A stretch of 34,835 nucleotides of DNA. Source: Bacteriovoracaceae bacterium (GTDB taxonomy: Bacteria; Bdellovibrionota; Bacteriovoracia; Bacteriovoracales; Bacteriovoracaceae). Within the stretch, counting starts at the first letter, position 1; each line of letters opens with the position of its first letter. Under the pieces are notes generated by a model. That model was not told the DNA's origin and did not search any database. It saw nothing but the letters and a program-made list of their open reading frames with translations. The position numbers and the translations under genes are program-made. Positions 2,837 through 26,923 of this stretch are shown one piece after another. The stretch lies in NCBI GenBank assembly GCA_018649885.1, contig JABIHA010000090.1:1-34835 (forward strand). The letters run 5' to 3'.

Positions 2837-3850
2837 TTATGCACTCTTTTTGGTGATGAGTTGCTCTAAAATTTCGAGGGCCTTGCCATTAAAGCCGGCT
2901 CCAATACCGGGATCATTCCCCGATTTGATTTTGGCAAACGCCGACTTAGCATTTTGGGTTTTATCAATTTTACCCATTGTGACATCAATGAAAGTTGAGC
3001 TTAAGCTGAGGATTTGTGAACCTAGTGTGAGCTCCCTTTCAACAAGTTCATCAGGGTAGCCACTTCCATCTACTCTTTCATGGTGGCCCTCGATTGTTCT
3101 GATTTGATCTTTTGTCAGGGACAACCCAATTTTTTTTGCCACATAAGATGACTGCTTTGGATGTTTTTCAAATTCTTTTAACTCAACACTTGTTAGCTCA
3201 TGGTATGGTTTTAAGAGAAGATCTCGGCTAATTTGTGATAATCCAATGTGGTGAAGGTAGGCGCAGGTAAAGAGCTCACAGGTGGCCTGAGCACTTACAA
3301 TGCCTTGTAGTTTGGCAATCACGAAAGTTGTGACAATGCTGCGATTAAGGTAATTATCTATAAAGTTAAATTGGTCGGCGAGAGAGATAGCTAGTGAGAT
3401 TTGCTCGCTTTCACCTTTCGGAAAACCTTGAATCTCTGAAATCATGATATTGTATACACTATTATAAGCACCGCTTGTAATGGCAGTTTCGAAATCTTCA
3501 ATTAACTTTTGATCGTTTTCCTCGATTTGCTGACTTTCCTCTACACCAGACGAGCTATCCACAACTCTTGTTTTGGCACTTAAGGAGGGGATATCTGTAT
3601 CTTTTTGATTGGTATTGGTCAGAAAAGATTTTTTTTGATTTCTAGAAATATATAGTCTTGCTCCTTTTTCAAGGTATCCATCGAGAGTGTGTTGTTTTTC
3701 ACCATCAAGTACTGAGTTAGCATATAGGAAAACACTTACTTTGGAGTTTTGGGGGTTGTAGAGGTAGAGGTGTGCAGAAAAAATATTCTCTATTCCAAGA
3801 TTCGATTTGTCGATCTGAAAGTAAAATTTTATATTTTGTTCTACACTCAT
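2837..3850 (-). CDS. HD-GYP domain protein, degenerate (c-di-GMP phosphodiesterase-like)
   Basis: Has HHERVDGSGYPDEL, FEKHP and SQIL motifs. The HD motif reads LHHIG instead of LHDIG, and the D.FDA.T..RPY motif is not conserved. Confidence 0.85.
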   Translation of the reverse strand: MSVEQNIKFYFQIDKSNLGIENIFSAHLYLYNPQNSKVSVFLYANSVLDGEKQHTLDGYLEKGARLYISRNQKKSFLTNTNQKDTDIPSLSAKTRVVDSSSGVEESQQIEENDQKLIEDFETAITSGAYNSVYNIMISEIQGFPKGESEQISLAISLADQFNFIDNYLNRSIVTTFVIAKLQGIVSAQATCELFTCAYLHHIGLSQISRDLLLKPYHELTSVELKEFEKHPKQSSYVAKKIGLSLTKDQIRTIEGHHERVDGSGYPDELVERELTLGSQILSLSSTFIDVTMGKIDKTQNAKSAFAKIKSGNDPGIGAGFNGKALEILEQLITKKSA

Positions 3851-6607
3851 CTAACTTGCCTTTTTTGATCCAAATAAGTTTTTCCAAATAGATTTCTTAC
3901 CACCAGTTTTTTGATCTGATTTACTCCCACTATATTCTCCACTGACCCCTGAGTCTTTCATACTTTCGAGGTAGAGAGAACTTAGAGCAAATAGAATATT
4001 TTCTATGATTTTTGAATTCTCCTCACTTATTCCATTTTCAAAGTAACATACGGCCATTCCCATTTTTAGATTGCCTTCAAAATAGGGGAATACCAGCCTT
4101 GTTTTAATTTTTGAGTCGCCTTCAGTGTTTTCTTCCCATTGGGGAAGCTCTGTACTGTCCAGTGCAGAAATTGCCTCTGCATTTTCTTCGAAATAGGCAG
4201 CGCCGGGAGCAAATGAGTTTTCCTCTTGGATATAGGGGATAAGTGCCGTTTGGTTTTCAAGGTTTGATTTGACAAAGAATTTGGAGAACCCTGAATACTT
4301 GTTAAATATGATGCTCTTTGTATATTCGATAATACCATCTTTGGATAATTGTGGATCGATGAGAAGAGAAGTGATTTCAAAAATAGTTTCAATACCATAA
4401 GTCTGCATTTTAATATGGGGATTTTCTATAACTTCTTCTTCTCTTAGATTTTCTAAATCGTCTTCAATTTGTAATTCATCAACTTTTTTTTTCGTCTGTT
4501 CAATGCTTGCAAGCTCTATCGCCTTTTTTGGAGAAAGGATATGTGAGTGGCCCTGGTTAGTATTCTTTACAAAGCGAGTAAAGCTAATGGGGGCGACTTC
4601 AAGTGACTCCTTGTCTAAATTTAATACATTCTCGTCCAGAGACTGAAGGGGAGAGGTCTGCTTCTTTACTTCAAGGTAGCGATTTTGTTTTTCCTTTTCT
4701 TCTAGCTCTATCTTTTCAGTTTTTTGTTCTTTTTTTGTTCTTCTTTCAAGAGGGTGATCTTCAATGTCCTTTTTCTCTACGCTGGATTCAGCCTCTTGAA
4801 GTTTTGTGCCCTTTTTCATACTCATGTCGATTTCAATTTCATCGTATTGTTTTTTCTTTTTTTCGCTATCGTCTTCAAGTTCAATCTCTAATCTCTTTTT
4901 CTTTGACTCTACCTCTTCAGGATCAGTAGCTTCTTCAAACTCACTTTCCTCATGTACTTCTTCAAGCTGGAGGGCCTTTTTCTTTTCATTCTCTGCAAGT
5001 TGATCATTTTCCAATTCGAGGGACTTTTTCACACCTTCTTCATCTTCAAGAATTAGTGCTTTCTTTTTCCTCTCTTGCTCCGCTTCTTCAGTTTGAATAT
5101 TTTCTTTTTCCCTCTTTTTCTCTTCAGCTTCTAGTAAGAGTTGTTTTTTTTCTTTCTGGGCCTGTTCAACTTCTTCAAGCTGAAGTTCTTTGTTTTTTTT
5201 GTCTAATTTAATTTCTTCTTCTTGAGGTTGTTTTTCTTTCTTATCTTGGTTTTGATCTGCTTCTAGCTGAAGTTCTGAGAGCTTCTTGGATTTCTCTTCG
5301 CCTTTTTGGGACTCCTCACTTTCTTGTTCCTCTTGAATTTCAGGAACTTCTTCTAAGTTTAATTCTTTTTTTATCTTTGCATGACTGGCGATATCTTCAG
5401 GTACAGGCCAGTCATTTTTCTTCGAATCATCTCCACTATCTTTAAGTTCTAGTTTTCCTACTTGTTTCTTTTTTGTCTCAGCTGCATCACCTTTTTCAGT
5501 TTCAAGGAATGGATCTTTATTGCCTTCTTCATCAAAGTTTAGTTTGTGGTCTTTTCCCTCCGCTCTTTGGGTTTCCGTTTCTGGATTTGTTTCTTTTTTC
5601 GATCTAGAGCTAGCTTTGTCATCTTTTTCCAAAATTAGATTTTGATTTTTCTTTTTCTTATGACTATCTTGTTCTTCTGATTCCCCTTTTTCTTGGGCTC
5701 CAGTCTGATTTGCTTCTATATTATCGAACTTAAGAGAGGAGTTTGATTTTTTTGACTCATTAGTGGGCCAATCCTCTTCTTTCGCTGTTTGCTTGTCTTT
5801 ACTTGTGTCATCATCTTCTAATATCAAGGAGTCTGTTTTCTTTGATTTCTTTGATTTCTTTGGCCATTGCTCTTTTTCTTTATCACGCTTTTCCTTCCCG
5901 GGCCCTTTTTCATCTTGATCTTCAAAGTTCAATCCATTTTTGCTCTTACTTTTAATATCCAGGCTTAATTCAGTTTCACTGCCAATTTTTTCTTTCTGGG
6001 CAGATTCCTCACTATTATCTTCTGCCTCAAACTTTAATCTTCTATCTTTATGACTCACATTTACTGTTTCAGGTTCTGATTCAAATTTATTTTTTTCTGA
6101 AGTAGTAATTTTTTCTGGATCTTCATCAAATTTCAGCATGGACTTTACGTTTTGAACGTTTTGAACGTTTTCGCCTTCATCTTCATCTTCATCTTTTTCT
6201 TCTTCAAATAGATTGGAGTCACTAGAGTCCTTTGCAGGTAGTAACTTTAGAATTTTATCTAACTTGTACTGCAAAGCCGTAGCAGCTATAGGCTCGTGAA
6301 CATTATCTGTAAGACCTAATTGTTCAAATTTTGATTTGACTCGAAAATTTAAACTCTTTGATGTGATGAGAACAGATAGGGAATTTGAATTTTTATAATC
6401 TTTTTTTGCCTTGGCAAGAACATAGATAAGTTTCTTTGGATCACTACTAATAATGACTGCCGGCCTTGAGGTTAAAAAAATCTGAATGGCTTCATCTACA
6501 TTATCAACTTCGAAGATTTCATTTGCTTGATCCTCTTCATAAACCTTTTTGACCTCAGCGACTGGAGCTGAAATAGGATAGATGTAAATGATGGTCCGTA
6601 ATTCCAT
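3851..6607 (-). CDS. Large protein: N-terminal pseudo-receiver (REC-like) domain, long E/K-rich disordered region, C-terminal folded (possibly GAF-like) domain
   Basis: The N-terminus has a REC-like pattern (IIYIY...VDNVDEAIQ...RPAVIISSD...SVLITSK...GLTDNVHEPI) without the phospho-Asp or KP motif. The centre is low-complexity and charged. The stop codon directly abuts the HD-GYP start codon. Confidence 0.8.
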   Translation of the reverse strand: MELRTIIYIYPISAPVAEVKKVYEEDQANEIFEVDNVDEAIQIFLTSRPAVIISSDPKKLIYVLAKAKKDYKNSNSLSVLITSKSLNFRVKSKFEQLGLTDNVHEPIAATALQYKLDKILKLLPAKDSSDSNLFEEEKDEDEDEGENVQNVQNVKSMLKFDEDPEKITTSEKNKFESEPETVNVSHKDRRLKFEAEDNSEESAQKEKIGSETELSLDIKSKSKNGLNFEDQDEKGPGKEKRDKEKEQWPKKSKKSKKTDSLILEDDDTSKDKQTAKEEDWPTNESKKSNSSLKFDNIEANQTGAQEKGESEEQDSHKKKKNQNLILEKDDKASSRSKKETNPETETQRAEGKDHKLNFDEEGNKDPFLETEKGDAAETKKKQVGKLELKDSGDDSKKNDWPVPEDIASHAKIKKELNLEEVPEIQEEQESEESQKGEEKSKKLSELQLEADQNQDKKEKQPQEEEIKLDKKNKELQLEEVEQAQKEKKQLLLEAEEKKREKENIQTEEAEQERKKKALILEDEEGVKKSLELENDQLAENEKKKALQLEEVHEESEFEEATDPEEVESKKKRLEIELEDDSEKKKKQYDEIEIDMSMKKGTKLQEAESSVEKKDIEDHPLERRTKKEQKTEKIELEEKEKQNRYLEVKKQTSPLQSLDENVLNLDKESLEVAPISFTRFVKNTNQGHSHILSPKKAIELASIEQTKKKVDELQIEDDLENLREEEVIENPHIKMQTYGIETIFEITSLLIDPQLSKDGIIEYTKSIIFNKYSGFSKFFVKSNLENQTALIPYIQEENSFAPGAAYFEENAEAISALDSTELPQWEENTEGDSKIKTRLVFPYFEGNLKMGMAVCYFENGISEENSKIIENILFALSSLYLESMKDSGVSGEYSGSKSDQKTGGKKSIWKNLFGSKKAS

Positions 6608-11023: not shown

Positions 11024-11212
11024 ACTACCTAGAGAGATACCATGGGAATGATGAAATATTTTTTACTAACTCTAGTATTCCCTTTGATGTGATGGAAACA
11101 AAAATTGATCAGCATCTGATAAATTCTGGCCTTGCCCTCGAAGAAGAAGTTCAAGGGGAAGACACTAGTGGTGGAAACTCAAAAGACTGAGAATAATAAA
11201 ATGGAGAAGATT

Positions 11213-12022
11213 ATGAAAATGGTTCTAAGTGCTTTAATTGTTTTGCTTGTGAGTTCTCAGGTCATGGCCACATGTGATGACAACGATGTTCTTCTTACAA
11301 GCTATGGTTCTAGTAAACTGAATGTGGTTAAAGCTGTAAAGAGTATTACTTCACTGGGACTAAAAGAAGCTAAAGAGCTTGTGGATACAATTCCTTCAAC
11401 TATTTTAGGTAGTGTTTCTGAAGCAGAGGCAGAGGCAACAGTAGTCTCACTAGAAGCTGCTGGGGGGGAAGCCGAGGTGGTTTCAAATTGCGAGGAAGAA
11501 AGTGAAGGAGAAGAAGAAAGCTCAGAGTCTTCAAGCTTTTCTTGCTCAACATATGCAGTTGTGGTGAATGCAACTTATTCAGACAAGAGTGCTTTGGCGA
11601 CAAGTTTAACAGCACTGCTGGGAGAGTCTGAGAGCAACATTAGTACAATGCTCGACTCCATTCCTGTAGCGGTCAAGTCAGACCTAGATCTTGAGACGGC
11701 AAAAGCTCTTGAGATAAGTTTAGAGTCCTATAGTTTAACTGCTTCACTTGTGGCCCAATGCCAAGATAGCTCAGATGATGATAGTGAAGTGTCGAGCTGT
11801 GAGTTTTATGATGTAAATCTTGATAGCGTTGGTACTAGCAAGTTAAACGTGGTTAAGGCGATCAAGTCTCTTACAGGTCTTGGACTTCGAGAGGCAAAAG
11901 ATATTGCCGATGCTGCTCCATCAGTTGTAGAAGAAGACCTAAGCTACGAAGAGGCGCAGAGTTGGGAATCTGATCTAGAAGATGCTGGAGGCGAAGCCTC
12001 TATCTCAGAGAGTTGTGATTAG
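11213..12022 (+). CDS. Secreted protein with three tandem ribosomal bL12 (L7/L12) C-terminal-like domains
   Basis: GGAG RBS at 11203-11206 and ATG at 11213. Signal peptide MKMVLSALIVLLVSSQVMA. Domains 1 and 3 have DV.L...G.SKLNVVKA(V/I)KS(I/L)T.LGL(K/R)EAK...P.......S..EA......LE.AGGEA. Domain 2 is degenerate. No L12 N-terminal dimerisation domain. Confidence 0.9.
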   Translation: MKMVLSALIVLLVSSQVMATCDDNDVLLTSYGSSKLNVVKAVKSITSLGLKEAKELVDTIPSTILGSVSEAEAEATVVSLEAAGGEAEVVSNCEEESEGEEESSESSSFSCSTYAVVVNATYSDKSALATSLTALLGESESNISTMLDSIPVAVKSDLDLETAKALEISLESYSLTASLVAQCQDSSDDDSEVSSCEFYDVNLDSVGTSKLNVVKAIKSLTGLGLREAKDIADAAPSVVEEDLSYEEAQSWESDLEDAGGEASISESCD

Positions 12023-16078: not shown

Positions 16079-16234
16079 AAATATTTATCCACATTGTCCC
16101 TTTTGATAGCGCCCAAATTGTGAACAGTACGCTCCAGAGCTGAACACAATTATTAAATGACAGACTATTTTAGATAGACAATAAATTCTCAGCCGACATA
16201 GAATGATTCGAATTAATCAACTCAAGGAGGGATT

Positions 16235-16426
16235 ATGGCCAAGGTAATTATGGGCCTCTGTCTTACATTTTGTAGCGCACTCGCGTTTTCAAATGTTATC
16301 ACAGACCACGATCTAAATGCTTTCGACGAATCACAGTCGGTTCAAGAATCACTAGTACAGTACAACAGCGAAATTGAAGATTTACCCGATATCTTAGATA
16401 TCGACGATTCTGAAGATTCATTTTAA
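16235..16426 (+). CDS. Small secreted acidic peptide, first gene of the AAA+ operon
   Basis: AAGGAGG RBS and signal peptide MAKVIMGLCLTFCSALAFS. The mature part is Asp/Glu-rich with no Lys or Arg. Confidence 0.7.
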   Translation: MAKVIMGLCLTFCSALAFSNVITDHDLNAFDESQSVQESLVQYNSEIEDLPDILDIDDSEDSF

Positions 16427-16466: not shown

Positions 16467-19190
16467 ATGAAACCAGTGCATTTAATTTTATTAGGCAGTT
16501 TACTTGCAAGCTTAGGTGCTTTTGCAGGCGAGCTGAAACTTAGATCCGATTACCTTATTATGTATAAGGAAGCCGCGGCTCATTTCAAAACCATAGGTAT
16601 TGATGTGAAGCCTGGTATTTACTTACACAACAGAAGCCAAACTATTGGAAGAGAAGATCTTAAAGATATTTCTTCTGGTGGTAGCTGGAAAGTTCCTCTC
16701 ATTGGAAAGGAAATCTATTTGGGCTACGCTTCTGGTCAAGTTCCCAAAACTCGTAATGAAGTTTGGGCCATCTTTGATGGGAAATTCTTTTTGGTTAAAG
16801 ACCAAAAGGGAGCTACTCAACAAATTAACAATGGGGTTCCATTAGAGATTGTTCCAGCCAGAGAGGGAATGTATCTGGTAACCGCTTCTAAAAAGGTTAT
16901 TTTTAGATATCATGAAGCGGATAGAAACAAGACTCTTAAAAGTCAAAATCCCTACAACTTGTACTCACTTCATCCACACTCATATCAACTGAGTAGGGAC
17001 GGGCACAATATGTTGTTTTTAACTGAAGATTTAAAACTTGTAAGACACGGCAATGATGGAAAAAACCAAGTCATCGTTCCAAGCTTTGAGGAACATCCAA
17101 AGCTGGGGCCAAAGATGAGTTTTACAGGAGACGGGATCTTCCTTCCAACGGCAACAGGTATTGAATTTCTTAAATTAGACGGTACAGGAAAGGTTGAGAG
17201 CAAATCTCAAATCCTTACTCTTCGTTCTGATGAAAGAGTTGTTTTTTACGAAAATATTCCAATTCTTATTCAAAACCTAGCAGTAGGCGGAAAAAGAAAG
17301 TACATCCTCGGTGATGATGGCTCACTTCTTCCACTAGATGCTGGTAAGAACCTATACGGAACAAAGCTTAAGTCACTAGAGATTAATCTTCTTATGAGTT
17401 ATGCAGAAGATTGGGGCTCAAGAGCTAGACTTGGTCACTTCGATAGTATCTTTATTAGAGATGCTTATATTGAAAGAGCACTATCTTTATTAAAAGGTCA
17501 GACCATGACTTGGGTGAATATGTCAGGGCCTTACGGCGTTGGTAAATCATCACTACTTAAGTCAGTGACAAAGTATATTGTTAGACAACAAGAGAAAGGC
17601 TCTGTTGAGTGGGAAGAATTTGAAATCTTTCATTTTCCGCTATCTAGTGTGATCGCTGCTAAAACAGCTTCTGATCAGATTTGTCCTAAAGGTGTATGTA
17701 AAAATGGTGGAACTCCTCCATGGATTAAAGTTCAAAATGCACTTTTTGGTAGAAAAGTACTTATTTTGATGGATGACTTTTTAGATGATCCAGGTCTAGG
17801 GCCAACCAATATTAATAAGGCGATGGATGCATTTTTAGGATTTTTCCGTAAAGAGATTAAAGACGGAAAACTTAGAATTATCACTACTGCAGATGACATT
17901 CTCTGGAGAGATATAAACGTTGCTAACCCACAAGTTAAGAATATGGGTTATAACGTTACTGTTACATCTCCTCCACCAGAAGAGTTGGACGCGATGCTTT
18001 CAGCGGCCATGAGAAGTCTTGAAGGAAAATTCAAGGTTAGTTTTGGCGAAGGTGTTAAGGGTATTATCCTTGACTCTGCAAGAGAGCTTTTTCCAATAGA
18101 TGTTGAACCAAATAGATCAATTAGATCAGCAGAAATTTTGGCGAGAACTCACGGGAGTATCAATAGCAAGGGAATCACACAGATTGGGGTTCTTGAAGTT
18201 AGAAAGCACTTTCTATCTTACGTATTTGATGCCACTAAACTTGAAGAAATGGATACTGTTGCTCTTAGAGCGATGCTAGATCGTGAAGTTGTAGGTCATG
18301 AAGAAGTTAAAGATGAAATTGTTAATAAGTTCATCTCTTTAAAGCTTGGTATCATCTCTATGGATGAGCCCATCGCAAAATTTCTTTTCACAGGACCTAC
18401 TGGAGTTGGGAAAACCTATACAGCTGAGCTACTTGCTAAGCAAATAGGTGTACCAATGATCAAGATTGACATGAGTTATTTCACTGGATTTGATCCAGAT
18501 TCAATGATCACTCAAATGGTAAAAAATCAAAAGGGTAAGCCTTATGTATTACTACTTGATGATGTTGATAAGTCAGCTGTCAAACTTGCAGAACTAAGAG
18601 GCCTTATAGAAAGAGGGATCTACGCTGAAGGAACAGACAATGAGCTAAGCTTTAGAAATGCCATCATTATTATGACTGGTAACTATGGCGCCAAGCTTAT
18701 TTCAGAAGCCTCAAGCCTTAGCATTAAAGAAATTCTTCCACTTCTAAGAGAATATGTTCTCAGTGGTGAGACTCCTGCTAATGAAAAAATTCCACTTCAC
18801 GTATGGGCAAGACTTCAAGAATCAACTTTGATTTTTAAAGCTCTTACAGAAGATCAACTAACACTAGTTTCTAAGAAATTTGTAAAAGAATTAAGTAGAG
18901 ACTTTATGCTCAGAGAAAATATCAAGATTATGGTTGGTGACAATTACCTTGAGTATGTTGTTTCAACTAGCCTTGATAGCTCCCTTGGTGCTTCTCCAAT
19001 TCGTGAGAAAATCGTGGGCGATCTCAAGAGAAAAATTGCAGAACATCTATTTGCCATTAAAGAAGCTGATAAGACTAAGGCCATTATGCTCAAGATTTTT
19101 CCAAGAGTCAGAAAGGTTTACATCGATCAAGCTCCATCTGGCAGATTAGTGATTGTAAATAATACGCAAGCAGGATTTCCTGTTAAATAG
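16467..19190 (+). CDS. Signal-peptide-bearing Clp/Hsp100-like double AAA+ protein, catalytically degenerate
   Basis: Signal peptide MKPVHLILLGSLLASLGAFA. Walker A motifs GPYGVGKS (17526-17549) and GPTGVGKT (18393-18416). Walker B reads ILMDD and LLLDDVDK. Also VVGHEEVK, IDMS and IIIMTGN; sensor-2 reads GASP. Confidence 0.85.
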   Translation: MKPVHLILLGSLLASLGAFAGELKLRSDYLIMYKEAAAHFKTIGIDVKPGIYLHNRSQTIGREDLKDISSGGSWKVPLIGKEIYLGYASGQVPKTRNEVWAIFDGKFFLVKDQKGATQQINNGVPLEIVPAREGMYLVTASKKVIFRYHEADRNKTLKSQNPYNLYSLHPHSYQLSRDGHNMLFLTEDLKLVRHGNDGKNQVIVPSFEEHPKLGPKMSFTGDGIFLPTATGIEFLKLDGTGKVESKSQILTLRSDERVVFYENIPILIQNLAVGGKRKYILGDDGSLLPLDAGKNLYGTKLKSLEINLLMSYAEDWGSRARLGHFDSIFIRDAYIERALSLLKGQTMTWVNMSGPYGVGKSSLLKSVTKYIVRQQEKGSVEWEEFEIFHFPLSSVIAAKTASDQICPKGVCKNGGTPPWIKVQNALFGRKVLILMDDFLDDPGLGPTNINKAMDAFLGFFRKEIKDGKLRIITTADDILWRDINVANPQVKNMGYNVTVTSPPPEELDAMLSAAMRSLEGKFKVSFGEGVKGIILDSARELFPIDVEPNRSIRSAEILARTHGSINSKGITQIGVLEVRKHFLSYVFDATKLEEMDTVALRAMLDREVVGHEEVKDEIVNKFISLKLGIISMDEPIAKFLFTGPTGVGKTYTAELLAKQIGVPMIKIDMSYFTGFDPDSMITQMVKNQKGKPYVLLLDDVDKSAVKLAELRGLIERGIYAEGTDNELSFRNAIIIMTGNYGAKLISEASSLSIKEILPLLREYVLSGETPANEKIPLHVWARLQESTLIFKALTEDQLTLVSKKFVKELSRDFMLRENIKIMVGDNYLEYVVSTSLDSSLGASPIREKIVGDLKRKIAEHLFAIKEADKTKAIMLKIFPRVRKVYIDQAPSGRLVIVNNTQAGFPVK

Positions 19191-19216
19191 GACTTAGAAC
19201 ATAAAGGAGTATGTTT

Positions 19217-20026
19217 ATGAAATTCATGATGATTGGGGTTCTTACCTTAGCTTTTGGGATGAATGCCTTCGCAGAGGAAGACGATTTCTTTCGCAAGAAA
19301 AATGCTATTCTCTTTGTTCTCGATATCTCTGGCTCTATGATGGGAGCGCCTTTGACGAAAGTTAAGGGAGTGATTGCAAGGACTATTCCGAAGGTTAATA
19401 AGAAAGATTACGTTGGGCTTATTTCATTTTCAGGATGTGGCCATAACTATGTAAAGACTCAGGTACCTCTAACAGTCGGTGCTCATACAAAGGTTGTGGC
19501 ACGCGCAGCTGGACTTAGAGCAGGAGGAGCAACTGATTTATCACTCGCTCTAACTTACGCCGAAAACGAAGTAGCTAGGCTTGATCATGGTACATGTGCC
19601 AGTGTGATTGTTCTAACAGACGGAGCAGATTCGTGTGGGAACAAAAATGCTAAAGATCGTGCAGAAGACATCTCTACTAAATACGGAAACTGTAAGTCAG
19701 TAGACGTTATTAGTATTGGTATGGGCGATTGGGAAGGCGACATCCTAGATGATATTGCTAAAAATGGTAAAGGCGATCACAGAAGAGTTGAAGAGCCTGA
19801 TGACATTGAAGAGCAAATCAAAGATATCCTTAAAAAACGTCAACGAGACAGCAAAGGTAAAGGTGGCTGGGAAGGCGACTATAAGGATAAAAAAGACAAG
19901 AAGAAAGGTGACGACAAAAAAGGTGACGACCCTGAAGAGAAGAAAAGATCTGATGAAAGGGAACGTGAACGTCAAAGACAAAAACAAAAAGAAGGTAAAG
20001 GTAAAGGTAAGGGTGGCAAGAAGTAG
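19217..20026 (+). CDS. Secreted von Willebrand factor A (vWA) domain protein with highly charged C-terminal tail
   Basis: AAGGAG RBS (19204-19209) favours ATG 19217; 19211 is the alternative. Signal peptide ends AFA. MIDAS is intact (DISGS, GATD, LTDG). 4 Cys and a K/D/E/R-rich tail. Confidence 0.9.
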   Translation: MKFMMIGVLTLAFGMNAFAEEDDFFRKKNAILFVLDISGSMMGAPLTKVKGVIARTIPKVNKKDYVGLISFSGCGHNYVKTQVPLTVGAHTKVVARAAGLRAGGATDLSLALTYAENEVARLDHGTCASVIVLTDGADSCGNKNAKDRAEDISTKYGNCKSVDVISIGMGDWEGDILDDIAKNGKGDHRRVEEPDDIEEQIKDILKKRQRDSKGKGGWEGDYKDKKDKKKGDDKKGDDPEEKKRSDERERERQRQKQKEGKGKGKGGKK

Positions 20027-20076
20027 CCACCGCTTTCTTAACCTATGCTTATTCTCATCCAATTTGGGAGGATCAT

Positions 20077-22455
20077 ATGCGGTTTAAAAAGTTTTGGAGT
20101 ACAGTTCTACTTATGTGTGCGGGGACGTCCTTGTATGCAGCAGACTGTAGCAAATTTCCTAGTGAAAATTTTGACTGGGTTAAGAAAACTCCATCAGGGC
20201 ATTGCCTTGGTCTTAGGGTTGCTGGCAATCAAAAAGCGAGTAATATTTTAGAAGGTGATATGGTATGGATCGAAGGAAACAAGCCATATCGTATTGGTGC
20301 AGAGCCTGGAACTTTCGTTTTTACTAAAAGTGGCGTCATGGGCGTTTACTTTCAAGGTCGAAATGCTGAAATTCGTTCATGGACCTCTCTTGATAAATCA
20401 ATAAAGCCAAAGATTTGTCGTAAGAATATTTCCATTAAAGATTTAAGAAGTGGAAAAATTAGAATTACGCCAATTAGAGGCAAAGGGTATGCAGTACAAG
20501 AGAAAGTTGTTTCTCAGTCATATTTCGAAGGTTGTGAAAAATCTGGAAAAGGTAAAATCTTCGCTGATCTTACTGAATCTGATCGAATCTCGCTTCAGAA
20601 GTACTCACCTTTTTCTCACTTGTCAAATGATCTAACAGATCCTGAAACCAATGCAACACTTCCTGAAATTTTGGGAAGAGATGAGTTGGTTGATAAGCTG
20701 ATTGCAAGATTTAGAAATGATTCCAAAAGATCAACTATGCTTTGGGGTCCAGCTGGTGTTGGTAAAACAGCTCTTGCTTACAGACTTGCCACAAGAATTG
20801 TTAGAGGTGAAGTTCCCGATTGGTTGAAAGACTGGTCAGTTCATATCATCGATCTTGGTGCTGTAAACGGTGAAGGTTTTTCAGGTTTAGCTGAAAAGAA
20901 AATGACTGAAATCGTAAAAGCTGCCTCTGGGAAAAAGACAATCCTCCTAATGGATGAAATCCATCAATTAGTGGGAATGGGAACAGGGGAAAATGATAGC
21001 TCTGACGTGACTGAGGTTATGAAGACTAACCTTGCGAACGGACAATTAGCTGTTATTGGAACTCTTACAGATGCTCCCGGTGAAATGTCTTTAGTAAGAC
21101 AAAAAGAAGCTTTCTTTTCTAGATTCACTAGAATCCATGTTTCTGATCCAAACGATGATGTTTTGATGATGATCTACAAGTACAAGGCCAAAAAAGCTAG
21201 AAGACGTACTAATGTGATCATTAATGACAAGTTGTTAAAGCACCTTGTTAGACTCACAAGACAGTATATTCCTGATGAGCATCACCCAAGAGTTGGGATC
21301 ACATTCATTGAACTCATGGAAAATCAGCTGGCTCCAGCAGATGACTCTAAAACATATACAGCAACTAAGACTGATCTTGAAGCTCTTGTTGGTGAATATG
21401 CAAACGTCATTGTTCTCAAAAGAGGCAAGGACAAGAGAAGCTTTCTCGAAAGAGTTGTTGATTTCCAAAAAGACGTAAGAAAGAAATACGTAGGACAAGG
21501 AAAAGCTGTTGACGCTATTGAAGCTGAACTTCTAAACCTTGCGGCTAACAATAAAAAAGATGAAAGACCTGCAGGGATCTTTTTATTCCTAGGGCCATCT
21601 GGTGTTGGTAAATCTTATCTTGCAAAGACTACTGGTAAAATGTTTGAGATGACTCCTAAGCTTTTTCCAATGTCTCAGTACACAAGTGACGCTGATGTGA
21701 ACACTCTTTTTGGTGCTCCTGAAGGCTATGTGGGTTACAACCCAGCTGGTGGACTACTTGTAAGATGGGTTAAAAACAATCCTACTTCTACACTAATCTT
21801 TGATGAAATTGACAAGGCCCACGCTAAGATTTTTGATTCTCTTTTAAGTCTTCTTGAAGACGGTGAAGTAGCTTCAAAAGGCGGCGGTGTAACAGCTAAA
21901 TTTTCTAACGGTTTTATCTTTTTTACCTCAAACTTTGGAATGGATATGATTGATGCATATGACGTCAACGTTCTTAAAATTCCAGAGCCATCAGGTCACT
22001 TTGGTAAGAAATACAAAGAAGAAGAAATACCCAAAACTGAAAATGGTCTGAAGCAGAGAATTCTTAATGATCTGATTAAAGACCAGAAGTTTGGTTCTTA
22101 CTTTGCGGGTCGTATCAGCATTGACAATATTGTTGTCTTTCACCACTTAAATCCTGAAGAGGGACGTAAGATTGCAGTTCTTGAAACAGCAAACGTGAAG
22201 AGAATGTTTGTAGATGCTAATAAAGTAGTTCTAGATCCAAAGGTTGTTACTTACATTGCTGATCAAGGTGTTGACTTTAGATTTGGTGCCAGATCTCTTA
22301 GATACGTAGCTCACAGGGTAATTAAAAATCCAGTAAACAGAGCAATCGTTGAACTTAAGAAGAAAGACATCCTACCTGAAAAGTATGACATCGGTATCAC
22401 ACTTAAAGACGCAAAAACCGGTGAAGTTGATGTCACAATAACTGAGGCCATATAA
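20077..22455 (+). CDS. Signal-peptide-bearing ClpA/ClpB-like double AAA+ ATPase with canonical motifs
   Basis: Signal peptide MRFKKFWSTVLLMCAGTSLYA. D1: ILGRD, GPAGVGKT, LLMDEIHQLVG, AFFSRF. D2: VGQGKAV, RPAGIFLFLGPSGVGKS, LFGAPEGYVGY, LIFDEIDKAH, FTSNFG, FGARSLR. No Clp N-domain or M-domain. Confidence 0.9.
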   Translation: MRFKKFWSTVLLMCAGTSLYAADCSKFPSENFDWVKKTPSGHCLGLRVAGNQKASNILEGDMVWIEGNKPYRIGAEPGTFVFTKSGVMGVYFQGRNAEIRSWTSLDKSIKPKICRKNISIKDLRSGKIRITPIRGKGYAVQEKVVSQSYFEGCEKSGKGKIFADLTESDRISLQKYSPFSHLSNDLTDPETNATLPEILGRDELVDKLIARFRNDSKRSTMLWGPAGVGKTALAYRLATRIVRGEVPDWLKDWSVHIIDLGAVNGEGFSGLAEKKMTEIVKAASGKKTILLMDEIHQLVGMGTGENDSSDVTEVMKTNLANGQLAVIGTLTDAPGEMSLVRQKEAFFSRFTRIHVSDPNDDVLMMIYKYKAKKARRRTNVIINDKLLKHLVRLTRQYIPDEHHPRVGITFIELMENQLAPADDSKTYTATKTDLEALVGEYANVIVLKRGKDKRSFLERVVDFQKDVRKKYVGQGKAVDAIEAELLNLAANNKKDERPAGIFLFLGPSGVGKSYLAKTTGKMFEMTPKLFPMSQYTSDADVNTLFGAPEGYVGYNPAGGLLVRWVKNNPTSTLIFDEIDKAHAKIFDSLLSLLEDGEVASKGGGVTAKFSNGFIFFTSNFGMDMIDAYDVNVLKIPEPSGHFGKKYKEEEIPKTENGLKQRILNDLIKDQKFGSYFAGRISIDNIVVFHHLNPEEGRKIAVLETANVKRMFVDANKVVLDPKVVTYIADQGVDFRFGARSLRYVAHRVIKNPVNRAIVELKKKDILPEKYDIGITLKDAKTGEVDVTITEAI

Positions 22456-23232: not shown

Positions 23233-23874
23233 TTGCAGGAGGCCATTCGGTCAGGTAAAAAACTTTGGGCCATTCTTATTACAGGATGGATCATGGGACA
23301 AGGCCAGATGGTTGCAGGCTCTCTTTCAAGATGGTCACATCATTTTATTGCAAATAAGGGCAGCATCGCTGCCCTTACTATTGTCAACACCGCTATCACA
23401 ACTACTATGGAGTTTGCTGGAAGATCACTGCAAATGCCCTTCAAAAAGAAAATGAAGGATCAGTACTTTTTTGTAACTAGTAAAAGTGGTGGAAAGACAA
23501 TAAATCGTCAAAGTATGATCAATATAATAATGGCGATAGTGGGAACTCTTATTGGAGGACCTGTATTCTTTTTTATGAAACGATCACATCGATTCTTGTT
23601 CTTTATTACATTCGGAATATTTAACTCCTGTCTCGGGCAGGGCATGGCCGGAGTGATGTTAGATGGGGCCTTTACTCTAGAAAAATCTAGATTAGTTTTC
23701 GATTTCTTTTACAGTGGCACCTGGAAGTTTCTAGTTTTTGAATTTGTCAGAACTCCTATCGTTAGGGCCGGACAAAATATAGTCAAACTTGGACTTATCA
23801 GAAGTAATCAAAAGTTTTTTAGCACATTTGTAAAAATTCAAATTATAGATTTAATTGGACTTGGCGGACGTTGA
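23233..23874 (+). CDS. Hypothetical basic membrane protein
   Basis: AAGGAGG RBS with TTG start, several hydrophobic segments, and tight operon spacing. Confidence 0.7.
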   Translation: MQEAIRSGKKLWAILITGWIMGQGQMVAGSLSRWSHHFIANKGSIAALTIVNTAITTTMEFAGRSLQMPFKKKMKDQYFFVTSKSGGKTINRQSMINIIMAIVGTLIGGPVFFFMKRSHRFLFFITFGIFNSCLGQGMAGVMLDGAFTLEKSRLVFDFFYSGTWKFLVFEFVRTPIVRAGQNIVKLGLIRSNQKFFSTFVKIQIIDLIGLGGR

Positions 23875-23875
23875 G

Positions 23876-25291
23876 ATGAACAAATTACTACTCATTATAG
23901 GTATTTTTGTTTTTTGGGTATCACCTGACTCAAACGCTTTGTCTTTAAAAGATATATCAGTGGGAGGACAGCTCAGCTGCTACCACATTGATGATGAAAG
24001 TAGTGGTGAGCTTGAGCTTAGATGCACGGGCAATACCAAGTTCGGAGGAGATAAAATTCCGGTGGAGTTGATTTCTCCCAAATTGGTTTCCATTGGTAAA
24101 AGGCATATTTGCGCGGCCACGGCTGAAAGAGTGATTTGCTGGGGAGATAATCGTAAGGGCCAGTCGACGCCCCCGAAAAATCTTAAAGATGTGGAGCATC
24201 TTGCAAGCGGAAGCCTTTTTAGCTGTGCTATCGACAAATTTGGAAAGCTAGACTGTTGGGGAGATGATCATGCGATGCCACTGAGTCCCTACTTTGGCTC
24301 AGTGACTAAAATGAGCGCAGGGGACTCTCATATGTGTATCTTGCAAGATACTGGTAATGTGGGAAAGGTGAGATGCTTTGGTGATAATCGCCACTCACAA
24401 ATCGATGTTCCTCTTAGTCTAAAAAATCCTGTGTCCTTATCAAGTGGTGCCAATCACAACTGTGTCATTGATGAACTTGAAAAAGATCTTAAATATGTGG
24501 CAATTTGTTGGGGAGATAAAACTTACGGTCAAATTTATACTCCAGCGGGTCTTGAAATTGTAGTGGATATTTCCACCGGCAGAAATCATACCTGTGCAGT
24601 GGACTTATACCAGGGAGTGAATTGCTGGGGAGATAATTCCATGGGGCAGATTAATACTCCACCTCTTCCTAGCGGTAAAAAATTTCAAGGAATAATTAGC
24701 GGAGATTACCATAGCTGTGCTTGGGGTGCTGATGATCTCGTTTGTTGGGGAAACTCCTACTTTAAATTGGACACAATTCCCGAAGATATTAAGACCCTCA
24801 AAAATAATATGGGAGATAAAAAGCTACCCGTCACCTATCGGCTGGCCGAAATGGGGTTTGCTAAAGAGATGAGCTACAAAAGTTATCACAGTAGTGGCTA
24901 TCTTAGGGGCTTTAGATATGTTCTTGATCACAAGTCACTGCTTTCAAAAATAGGCTATATAGCTAAAAGTAGCGCTAGGAATATCAGGCTTGCTATTTAT
25001 AGTGATTACCTAGGACAGCCCCATAAACTTGTGGCCCAGACATCACTAAAAAAGCTACTCAGTGGAAGGCATGAGCAAGATATTGTTGGCGGTGAAATAT
25101 TTTTAGGGCCTGAGGCCTACTGGCTGATGGCACAAGTTGATACAAACTCAGTAATTGGAGAGGGCTATCCCGGACCCAGTGATTTAAATTGTTATAGATA
25201 TTTGAGCGATATAAATTCACCTCTTCCTAGTGTTTTTGGCAAGGCCACTTGCAATACCACTAATAAGAGATGGAACTACTACACAAAATAA
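23876..25291 (+). CDS. Secreted RCC1/BLIP-II repeat beta-propeller protein with C-terminal domain
   Basis: Likely ATG at 23876 (MNKLLLIIGIFVFWVSPDSNA). Repeated (S/A)G..H.C.......V.CWG.N..GQ...P units. Confidence 0.9.
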   Translation: MNKLLLIIGIFVFWVSPDSNALSLKDISVGGQLSCYHIDDESSGELELRCTGNTKFGGDKIPVELISPKLVSIGKRHICAATAERVICWGDNRKGQSTPPKNLKDVEHLASGSLFSCAIDKFGKLDCWGDDHAMPLSPYFGSVTKMSAGDSHMCILQDTGNVGKVRCFGDNRHSQIDVPLSLKNPVSLSSGANHNCVIDELEKDLKYVAICWGDKTYGQIYTPAGLEIVVDISTGRNHTCAVDLYQGVNCWGDNSMGQINTPPLPSGKKFQGIISGDYHSCAWGADDLVCWGNSYFKLDTIPEDIKTLKNNMGDKKLPVTYRLAEMGFAKEMSYKSYHSSGYLRGFRYVLDHKSLLSKIGYIAKSSARNIRLAIYSDYLGQPHKLVAQTSLKKLLSGRHEQDIVGGEIFLGPEAYWLMAQVDTNSVIGEGYPGPSDLNCYRYLSDINSPLPSVFGKATCNTTNKRWNYYTK

Positions 25292-25310: not shown

Positions 25311-26663
25311 ATGAGGTTTTTTAGAAACTTTTTTAACTTGAAAAAAGAGGAACTGATGCCAGTTTCTTTTATGTCGATTTACTTTCTTTTGGTGATAACG
25401 ACTTTTTGGATTATGAAGCCATTAAAAAAGACGCTTTTCATCAGTCACTACGATGAGATGAACTTTCAGTTTTTTAATTGGTCTTTTAATGCGGCCCAAA
25501 CAGAACTTCTGGCAAAATGCCTGAATATGTTTGTGGCATTCCTGGCCTTTTGGGTCTTTTCAAAAATGGCAAAACGATTTCAGAAAGAAAAGCTGACCCA
25601 TCTCTTTGGTGGATTCTTCATGGTCTTTTTTATTTACTGGGCCGTTAGAATTAACACACCTTCTGTTGTGGATATTTGGGGCTTCTACATTTTTGGAGAT
25701 CTCTTTGTCACTCTAATGTGTGCATGTTTTTTCTCATTCCTAAACGACAGTGTGACACCTGATATGTCAAAACGACTTTATAGTTTTGTGATCCTAGGTG
25801 GTGTTGTGGGAGGGGTCATAGGAACTTCTCTTGTTAGAGTATGGCTAAAGCTTCTTTCATTAAGTGAATGGATGAGTGTATGTGTCCTTCTGATTGTGGC
25901 CACCATCTTTTGTGGATACCAGGCTGCTAAGGCATTTGAAAGACTTGGTACTGCCCAATTTGTTGGTGATACTGAAGCCGAGACAGATGAAAAACTAGAA
26001 GATTCGGCAATAGAGATTATGAGAAAAGTCTTTAGCAAGAAATATCTGCTTGGGATTATCTCTTTAGTTGTTATGTATGAAATGGTCTCCACACTTTTTG
26101 ATTTTCAATTTACAAGTGCCGTTTCTCACTTTTTAAGTGGGAAGGAAATTGGGGCCCAGTTTGCTAATGTTTATTTGGCCGTAAATATTGTCTCTTTACT
26201 GGTCCAACTCTTTTTAACAAGCTTTGTTCTCAACCAGCTTGGAGTTTCAAAGGGTATTATGGTCATGCCAGTGCTAGCTGCTGTTGGGGCCTTAATGTTT
26301 TTCGTATCACCTATCCTTTTAACAGGTAGTCTTCTTTGTGTGATTGATAACTCTTTTAATTACTCAATCAATCAAACTTCCAGAGAGGCCCTTTACGTGC
26401 CTCTAGGTAAGGGAGATAAGTATCAGGCCAAGGCCTTTATTGATATCTTTGGTGTGCGTTCGGCAAAGGTTCTGGGAATTGGAGCTTCACTTCTTGTGAC
26501 CACATTCTTTACTGAGTACTCCTCCCTAAGATGGGTTTCTTTCATCGCTCTTGGCATCACCGTGTGCTGGATTTTGGTAGCTACCTGGCTAGGAAGAGAA
26601 TACAAAATAAGAAGTCGTGCAGTTGAAGAGTTTGAAGCAACTGGAAAAAAAGTTACAGCGTAA
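25311..26663 (+). CDS. TLC/Npt-family (ATP:ADP antiporter family) nucleotide transporter homolog
   Basis: Likely ATG at 25311 after GGGGG. About 12 hydrophobic segments. Family-like motifs MKPLKKTLF, SKRLYSFVILGG and YSINQTSREALYVPL...KYQAKAFIDIFGVRSAK. The substrate cannot be determined from sequence. Confidence 0.8.
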   Translation: MRFFRNFFNLKKEELMPVSFMSIYFLLVITTFWIMKPLKKTLFISHYDEMNFQFFNWSFNAAQTELLAKCLNMFVAFLAFWVFSKMAKRFQKEKLTHLFGGFFMVFFIYWAVRINTPSVVDIWGFYIFGDLFVTLMCACFFSFLNDSVTPDMSKRLYSFVILGGVVGGVIGTSLVRVWLKLLSLSEWMSVCVLLIVATIFCGYQAAKAFERLGTAQFVGDTEAETDEKLEDSAIEIMRKVFSKKYLLGIISLVVMYEMVSTLFDFQFTSAVSHFLSGKEIGAQFANVYLAVNIVSLLVQLFLTSFVLNQLGVSKGIMVMPVLAAVGALMFFVSPILLTGSLLCVIDNSFNYSINQTSREALYVPLGKGDKYQAKAFIDIFGVRSAKVLGIGASLLVTTFFTEYSSLRWVSFIALGITVCWILVATWLGREYKIRSRAVEEFEATGKKVTA

Positions 26664-26669
26664 ATATAT

Positions 26670-26692
26670 AGGGGGTCTTTCTTGGGCCCCCT
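26670..26692 (+). terminator. Intrinsic terminator ending the AAA+ operon
   Basis: AGGGGGTCT-TTCTT-GGGCCCCCT hairpin 6 nt after the stop codon, followed by a T-rich run. Confidence 0.7.
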
Positions 26693-26923
26693 TCTCATTT
26701 TTATCAACTCATTTTCATCATCGTTGCACCAATCATGACCAGACTTAGGTTATGATTTTGTCAGGATCCAGTTCCGTTAGTCTAACTATTTGAAATTAAA
26801 GGACTTTCTTTTGCAGGAAATGGTGAAATTAATTCACAGGAGTTGCGCGGTGCGCAATCCATTGCTAGTTTCACTCCGTACTCAAAAACAACAAAATACA
26901 TACGACCCTATAAGGAGGAATCC

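Follow-up and report, generated by a model that had tools for sequence, protein, structure and literature searches.

Could a Clp-type ATPase work outside the bacterial cytoplasm, and why would its gene stand beside that of a catalytically degenerate paralogue? This question was raised by a 34,835-nucleotide stretch of DNA from a Bacteriovoracaceae bacterium (phylum Bdellovibrionota; assembly GCA_018649885.1, contig JABIHA010000090.1), called here the window. It encodes two AAA+ proteins, ATPase-1 (A1) and ATPase-2 (A2), with a gene for a von Willebrand factor A (vWA) protein between them and a gene for a trypsin-like serine protease behind. A sequence-only reading had proposed that A1 binds ATP, hydrolyses it poorly and partners A2 in a hetero-hexamer. 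We found that the asymmetry between the two ATPases is kept across relatives, and that A1, A2, the vWA protein and the protease are very probably exported through the general secretory (Sec) pathway, as judged from their leaders. The predicted export is a larger surprise than the pairing of the ATPases. The explanation that we favour, if only slightly, is that a Clp-type motor is exported together with a partner that binds ATP yet hydrolyses it poorly, the two likely sharing a mixed ring.

A Clp-type ATPase and its degenerate neighbour

The family-model search aligned both proteins with class I Clp models along the first and second AAA+ modules (D1 and D2), and the structure models, which were confident (predicted local distance difference test 87 for A1, 89 for A2), had Clp proteins as their best fold matches. 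Both carry two tandem Clp-type AAA+ modules of the class I Clp/Hsp100 structural class, and they share 23% identity over 454 aligned residues. Neither reached the equivalog cut-off of 993 bits of the ClpA model TIGR02639 (A2, 272 bits; A1, 109 bits). Fold matches to CbbQ/NorQ were lower than those to Clp proteins (Z 11.6-13.9 vs 22.7-27.8), setting A1 and A2 apart from the MoxR/chelatase clade. Compared with ClpA, ClpB and ClpC, architecture and fold are the same, and A2 likewise has the D2 pore loop, all D2 catalytic residues and a ClpA-like D1-D2 spacing. Unlike them, A1 and A2 bear signal-peptide-like leaders, have a beta-rich N-domain in place of Clp-N (the helical PF02861 was absent among the matches listed), and are two paralogues encoded alongside vWA and trypsin genes. 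They also lack the coiled-coil middle domain, as indicated by a D1-D2 lysine spacing of 273-304 (399 in ClpB, 337 in ClpC), and the D1 pore aromatic is not conserved. At the position of the ClpP-docking IGF/IGL motif, A2 has a long insert with VLKI/VLGI-like words and no invariant glycine, while A1 has none; no clpP was found among the module's neighbours. The host genome encodes its own ClpA, ClpB-like protein, ClpX and ClpP at other sites.

Relatives were gathered by protein searches, which yielded 4 full-length relatives for A1 and 8 for A2, and with a profile of the A1 N-domain plus D1, which added about 25 further A1-like proteins. From the profile scores, 37 A1-type and 19 A2-type sequences were picked by hand, leaving out fragments and duplicates. 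The counts were made on 32 A1 sequences, the window's own included, after removal of five A1-like proteins that have no D2 P-loop; the relatives are kin, and the counts are not independent. A1-like proteins made of an N-domain and a dead D1, without a D2 P-loop, are P0265, P0266, P0282, P0286 and L149:6251-8659.

The motifs from which the asymmetry had first been read translate at the positions listed in Table 1, and relatives with 17-41% identity show the asymmetry again. In D1 of A1, no sequence has both the Walker A lysine and the Walker B glutamate (0/32 complete). The arginine finger, an Asn in the window when aligned to ClpA, ClpB and ClpC references, is found in 8/32. D2 keeps the first Walker B aspartate in 31/32, and a single sequence, P0248, has a complete site and the canonical DE/GAR. 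The exact spelling DD and GAS, seen at first in the window's A1, varies among orthologs: the ten closest A1 have lost sensor-2 while half of them keep DE, and the distant clade mostly has GAR together with DD. What is kept is that, except in P0248, one of the two residues is always missing. The GYVG loop is deleted relative to ClpA, ClpB and ClpC and is absent in 32/32, and the same alignment places the Arg of VWARL (at 18801) at the D2 finger position. A1 thus appears to be a conserved, catalytically impaired partner, and its D2 looks selected for nucleotide binding. That it hydrolyses ATP poorly is very likely, given what AAA+ biochemistry leads one to infer from Asp for Glu or the loss of sensor-2 (PMC3789969). 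Strain-specific decay of A1 was rejected, the asymmetry being kept across relatives, and so was the CPKGVC insert as a family feature: it is present in the window at 17682, near the D1 pore-loop position, and a two-cysteine insert occurs there in only 2/32, the window's A1 included.

In A2, the D2 lysine, glutamate, aromatic loop and arginine finger are found in 19/19 and sensor-2 in 17/19, which makes D2 complete in 17/19. D1 is complete in 12/19 and dead in the other 7/19, a far clade in which D1 of A1 is dead as well. On these residues, D2 of A2 is the sole site kept competent throughout the relatives. One A2 relative (L106:8086-11724, minus strand), in a genome with two copies of the system, has a tandem second D2 (D1-D2-D2').

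In a quick, midpoint-rooted D2 tree, from which P0253 and two controls were left out since the pattern used for cutting did not match them, the A1 proteins formed one clade (SH-aLRT, an approximate likelihood-ratio branch support, 94). A1 and A2 do not come out as sisters in it, and no sequence of events follows from it. A metagenome scan with the A2 alignment gave 80 loci, all weak (24-37% identity, the level of generic Clps); ten relatives looked up in clusters were singletons, and a plasmid search with the A1 N-domain gave no match.

The N-domains of A1 and A2 were modelled as runs of beta strands. The faint mutual likeness first proposed for them was recovered by hhalign between A1 186-313 and A2 57-177 (probability 72, E 3.4e-5; 0.2 for a reversed control and 0.9 with close sequences alone). 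The register differs from that of the proposed motif pairs (PG.Y/F; LEIVPAREGMY with IRITPIRGKGY), which were rejected. Whole-protein fold searches were dominated by the AAA+ modules and say nothing on N-domain folds. The ESM Atlas returned no usable match for the A1 N-domain, and for that of A2 only sub-threshold beta-propeller look-alikes (template-modelling score 0.37-0.52), so a partial beta-propeller is a lead only. The four cysteines of the A2 N-domain recur in 11-12/19. Two A1 relatives, P0002 and P0005 (L003:9098-12724), carry an N-terminal PF03781 domain (FGE-sulfatase type) before the beta domain, in the slot occupied by trypsin in L108, L143 and L144.

Predicted export and the conserved module

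The leaders, the vWA gene, the protease and a translocase-like gene lie beyond the features from which the hetero-hexamer was first proposed. Signal-peptide-like leaders were called in 31/37 A1, 17/19 A2, 9/12 vWA and 10/12 protease sequences, as against 3/225 ordinary Clps taken from the same searches as controls. For this, we used a heuristic of our own, not SignalP; the heuristic looks for a basic n-region, a hydrophobic core and a small-residue cleavage site. By eye, most of the misses resembled leaders that lack a basic residue or mis-called starts. The four window proteins have no further hydrophobic segment, and the cysteines of their mature parts are even in number: 2 in A1, 4 in the vWA protein, 4 in A2 and 6 in the protease.

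Genome searches found the module in 1/238 genomes of the window's class and in 2/390, 1/127 and 9/38 genomes of three other classes, a patchy distribution within Bdellovibrionota. The order A1-vWA-A2, with A1 directly upstream, was found in 11/11 loci showing both ATPases (9 genomes, four classes); three further loci stop at a contig edge, and in L149 an A1-like protein without D2 has no vWA or A2 gene beside it. Fusions also tie the genes together: in L169 the N-terminus of A2 carries a fused vWA, and that of A1 a trypsin domain in L108 and, judged by similarity, L143 and L144. In 11/11 loci a trypsin-like gene either comes after A2 or is joined to the front of A1, and this assignment is weak for several distant copies without clear catalytic motifs. 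The vWA protein's MIDAS, an adhesion site that depends on a metal ion, has DxSxS and Thr in 12/12 and the last Asp in all 10 complete ones. Divergence of the A1 and A2 genes matches (Spearman 0.74 over 55 non-independent pairs). Downstream of the distant-clade module, two leader-bearing families (F2 and F5) recur in L107, L143, L145, L147, L148 and L149; a scan of a single F2 member gave no match in Pfam.

Abundant ATP is found only in the cytoplasm, and an exported motor would need a supply. The window's translocase-like protein matches PF03219, the family of nucleotide (ATP/ADP) transporters (NTT), at 58 bits (cut-off 21) and the solved plastid and parasite carriers at E 4.5e-7 and 1.1e-6. 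A gene of this kind adjoins the module in 3/11 loci: the window, where it ends the likely operon, L001 (two copies) and L002. The window's copy groups with the L001 copy (SH-aLRT 99) and a gene of genome G119, not with the resident copy of its own genome. A lysine aligned with the GKSGG lysine is invariant (5/5) and, on an assumed numbering offset, may correspond to K527 of AtNTT1. K527 is the carrier lysine used for comparison (PMC2606016). NTT genes with no assigned function are common in free-living bacteria (PMC5381601). Nine other NTT-like loci, for which only starts of open reading frames (ORFs) were seen, had no evident exported-ATPase neighbour. That an NTT-like exchanger supplies ATP outside the cytoplasm in the window's lineage is possible rather than probable. 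After the translocase genes, L001:19332-22658 and L002:18062-22280 share two leader-bearing proteins of about 500 and 920 amino acids (aa); three scanned had no Pfam match.

Known machines and the composition of the proposed ring

Clp-related AAA+ proteins acting on the far side of a Sec-type membrane are known from eukaryotes, unlike this bacterial module: torsin with LAP1 or LULL1, and Plasmodium HSP101. Torsin, with its single AAA+ module, relies on an activator that is a pseudo-ATPase and binds no nucleotide; A1, unlike that activator, keeps Walker A in D2. The structures 5j1s and 6e10, presumably of the torsin and HSP101 type, were among the fold matches of the A1 and A2 models. By analogy, the module would work most like a Clp unfoldase arranged like the chelatase pair ChlI/ChlD, and torsin/LAP1 would be the likeness for its location. 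ChlI/ChlD (CobS/CobT) likewise combines an active AAA+, a nucleotide-binding, non-hydrolysing AAA+ and a MIDAS vWA, and ChlD depends on its Walker A lysine far more than on its Walker B glutamate, the pattern of A1 (PMC3789969). Unlike the predicted module, it is a single-ring, MoxR-related and cytoplasmic system with its vWA on the inactive subunit; no chelatase H or N subunit was found among the neighbours common to the module loci. Pex1/Pex6 also comprises two double-ring AAA+ paralogues, one with the main motor D2 and a partner whose Walker B glutamate is dispensable (PMC4740771, PMC4490564). For its part, it belongs to the classical (Cdc48-like) clade and is cytosolic, both of its D1 are dead, whereas D1 of A2 is complete in 12/19, and both of its D2 keep the aromatic pore loop. 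MoxR-vWA ternary conflict systems (with VMAP, iSTAND, FtsH or beta-propeller components) likewise combine AAA+ with vWA and peptidases, and those with iSTAND also hold an inactive AAA+, but they are built on MoxR and not on Clp (PMC7159879). The words "secreted" and "Bdellovibrio" occur 0 times in the available part of that paper. A linked vWA with an intact MIDAS is shared by these systems, the chelatases and the module. On the tested features, the module lies outside ClpA, ClpB/C, the MoxR-vWA systems, the chelatases and Pex1/6, and a literature search with little coverage of subscription journals found no description of an exported Clp/vWA/protease system.

A1 and A2 probably belong to one complex, and we incline mildly to a ring shared by the two in some proportion. 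A more specific version, in which A1 sits in the ring of A2 and supplies its D2 finger to the A2 next to it, in a ratio at which A2 subunits still touch one another, is tentative. Two arguments from the fingers bear on it. A1 keeps its D2 finger although its own site is impaired, which favours a shared ring. A2 with a complete D1 keeps its own D1 finger, and A1 rarely has one and never has a complete D1, which argues for A2-A2 contacts. Since arginine fingers can be structural (PMC4490564), neither argument is decisive. Precedents exist for such rings: ClpA is still able to translocate when three D2 modules, in alternation, are active (PMC7568338), and Pex1 requires its Walker B aspartate, not the glutamate (PMC4740771).

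In the mechanism that we propose, the four proteins would be exported by Sec, form disulfides and assemble outside the cytoplasm. A2 would be the threading motor, gripping substrate by its D2 aromatic loop, and A1 an ATP-bound spacer or activator, with the protease at the N-terminal face where it is fused. The vWA MIDAS would capture the target as in other AAA+/vWA couples, its charged tail perhaps reaching into the pore, for which the fingers of CobT, CbbO and NorD are a precedent (10.64898/2026.10.09.757910). The protease would cut what is unfolded or remodelled, candidate substrates being envelope proteins (remodelling) or prey proteins (digestion). ATP would come from the NTT-like exchanger in the window's lineage, and elsewhere perhaps from another exporter or from prey contents. 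As a whole, a mixed unfoldase-protease ring outside the cytoplasm, with a vWA adaptor and an NTT exchanger sending ATP outward across the inner membrane, must be called unlikely.

Several points weigh against the mixed, exported ring. The change from Glu to Asp may leave A1 real activity, and P0248 has its complete D2. In 17/32 the shortened A1 loop retains an F-x-G motif, which might yet face the pore; essential D2 aromatic loops are present in Pex1 as well as in Pex6 (PMC4490564), whereas A1 has none. The D1 finger of A2 is kept in all 12 relatives with a complete D1, so that A2 may be a homo-hexamer, and the D2 finger of A1 is missing in 8/32, including partners of intact A2 in L106 and L143. 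The export call rests on a heuristic. As to ATP, a translocase-like gene was not found in 6 module-bearing genomes (G104, G046, G187, G199, G062 and G147; 90-97% complete), such genes occur in 66/251 genomes of the phylum, mostly without the module, and G119, which holds a sister of the window's translocase, has no A2 ortholog. A complex prediction for A1 (N-domain and D1, 570 aa) with A2 (N-domain and D1, 425 aa) scored 0.01 against a mark of 0.32 and is evidence for neither side.

The alternative that survives best, although rather unlikely, also places the proteins outside the cytoplasm. A2 would form a self-sufficient homo-hexamer, and A1 its own ATP-stabilised ring or scaffold, stacked or separate, for protease or substrate, as in the two-ring arrangement of the chelatase I and D subunits. 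In its favour, neither ring of A2 is short of a cis or trans residue in 12/19, 24/32 A1 are without the D1 finger, fusions join the protease to A1 and vWA to A2, and the A1-like protein of L149 stands alone; a soft objection is that A1 keeps the D2 finger in 24/32 with its own site impaired in 31/32. A hetero-hexamer in strict 3:3 alternation, on the model of Pex1/Pex6 and with A1 as the activator of A2 in the way that LAP1 activates torsin, is quite improbable. Pairing in 11/11 loci and the matching divergence agree with it, but co-divergence is expected of any operon. The dead D1 pairs of the far clade fit any stoichiometry, and alternating ClpA rings do work (PMC7568338). However, D1 of A2 would face a fingerless A1 in the window and 7/10 of its closest relatives, A1 offers no complete D1 site to receive a finger, in L106 and L143 an intact A2 stands next to an A1 that lacks the D2 finger, and the aromatic loop retained by both Pex subunits (PMC4490564) is absent from A1.

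There is little chance that the leaders are uncleaved anchors or unused, with the ATPases facing the cytoplasm like FtsH or Msp1 in a cytoplasmic AAA+/vWA/peptidase module. It is established knowledge that only the cytoplasm is rich in ATP, no translocase was detected in six module-bearing genomes, and the leader calls come from a heuristic. Yet a basic n-region, a short hydrophobic core and a small-residue cleavage site recur in four unrelated families, and the mature proteins have paired cysteines. Least probable is a view of A1 as a normal, active ATPase whose motifs vary, or as a duplicate in decay: Asp is a conservative replacement for Glu, the D2 Glu is kept in 7/32 and P0248 is complete, but A1 is a full-length, confidently folding clade with the same losses over about 80% divergence.

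The gene cluster, its surroundings and its significance

Table 1. Features of the A1-vWA-A2 cluster in the window (position 1 is the first nucleotide of the window; fractions for A1 and A2 refer to the relatives counted in the text)
Feature	Position	Strand	Remarks
Sigma-70-like promoter match	16175..16204	+	10/12, upstream of cluster; weak
63-aa ORF	16235..16426	+	signal-peptide-like start, acidic tail; first gene of likely operon
A1, 907 aa	16467..19190	+	leader, all-beta N-domain (21-314), degenerate D1, predicted nucleotide-binding D2; ribosome-binding-site-like GGGGAG just 5' of start
A1 predicted Sec signal peptide	16467..16526	+	heuristic; cleavage after AFA
A1 D1 Walker A, GPYGVGKS	17526..17549	+	Lys360; kept in 7/32
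A1 D1 Walker B, DD	17772..17777	+	Glu in 1/32, that sequence without Walker A Lys
A1 D2 Walker A, GPTGVGKT	18393..18416	+	Lys649; 32/32
A1 D2 Walker B, DD	18558..18563	+	Asp 25/32, Glu 7/32
A1 D2 arginine finger	18810..18812	+	Arg782; 24/32
A1 sensor-2, GAS	18987..18995	+	Arg in 0/10 closest, 16/32 overall
vWA protein, 271 aa	19211..20026	+	predicted signal peptide, intact MIDAS (DISGS at 19322-19336, plus Thr and Asp), four cysteines, charged low-complexity tail
A2, 792 aa	20077..22455	+	leader, small beta N-domain (four cysteines), complete D1 and D2 sites, ClpA-like spacing
A2 predicted Sec signal peptide	20077..20139	+	heuristic; GGAGG just 5'
A2 D1 Walker B, DE	20953-20958	+	translation of window
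A2 D2 pore loop, GYVG	21724..21735	+	aromatic residue 19/19
A2 D2 Walker B, DE	21802-21807	+	translation of window
A2 sensor-2, GAR	22285..22293	+	17/19
Trypsin-like serine protease, 254 aa	22457..23221	+	predicted signal peptide, His and GNSGG motifs, six cysteines
Hydrophobic protein, 213 aa	23233..23874	+	no Pfam match; not common to other loci
RCC1-repeat protein	23855..25291	+	hydrophobic leader; not common to other loci
TLC/NTT ATP/ADP-translocase-like membrane protein	25311..26663 (ORF opens 25230)	+	PF03219, E 9e-16
Terminator-like hairpin and T-run	26670..26702	+	directly 3' of translocase gene

Taken as a whole, neither the promoter scan (23 sites vs 29 in shuffles) nor the terminator scan (7 vs 8.7) rose above chance. 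The GC content of five checked genes is 38-42% and that of the genome 38%, which gives no hint of recent transfer. Fragments of A1, A2 and the protease gene were found at 99% identity or more (17/18 contigs) in one seawater RNA run, with nothing over the 1.5 kb upstream and none over the vWA gene, the RCC1 gene or most of the translocase gene. Coverage gaps prove nothing here, DNA may have been in the library and this is a single study, so the matches hint only weakly at expression.

The genome encodes at least 15 RCC1-repeat proteins, mostly with leader-like starts. A gene (11132-12022, plus strand) whose product begins with what resembles a signal peptide and has two C-terminal domains of ribosomal L7/L12 type (PF00542, E 5e-43) lies 4.4 kb upstream of the Clp pair and is not common to the other loci; the L7/L12 C-terminal fold and the Clp adaptor ClpS are one domain family (PMC7159879). 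On the minus strand, 1113-1478 and 1523-1897 encode, in tandem, two small proteins that resemble each other, each with a signal-peptide-like start and a hydrophobic middle rich in glycine, and 3851-6607 a 918-aa protein with a long Glu/Lys-rich middle, adjoining a gene (2837-3850) judged HD-GYP-like by eye. Elsewhere, two further Clp-like proteins with leader- or lipoprotein-like starts (G000:C1:35337-37535, in L109/L110, and G000:C17:11173-13506, in L111) form a clade of their own. They lack the D1 P-loop, keep D2 Walker A, the arginine finger and GAR, and each adjoins a subtilase (PF00082) with a leader-like start, possibly making up a second exported ATPase-protease module.

To our knowledge, the chaperones and proteases of the Gram-negative envelope are held to work without ATP, and bacteria are thought to have none outside the cytoplasm; the Hsp100 members that we know of are homo-hexamers. 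The folds described here are known, and the combination and the predicted location are new. If export fails, the module would be a variant within the Clp/vWA systems. If it holds, an exported Clp motor with intact catalytic residues would break the rule of an ATP-free envelope, and one could test where extracytoplasmic ATP comes from, a candidate exporter being encoded in that operon. An active and a pseudo-ATPase naturally paired within the Hsp100 class would also allow tests of how many active sites and pore loops a ring needs at minimum, and on the fullest reading, with the exchanger, the module would be a bacterial counterpart of torsin/LAP1 in the lumen of the endoplasmic reticulum.

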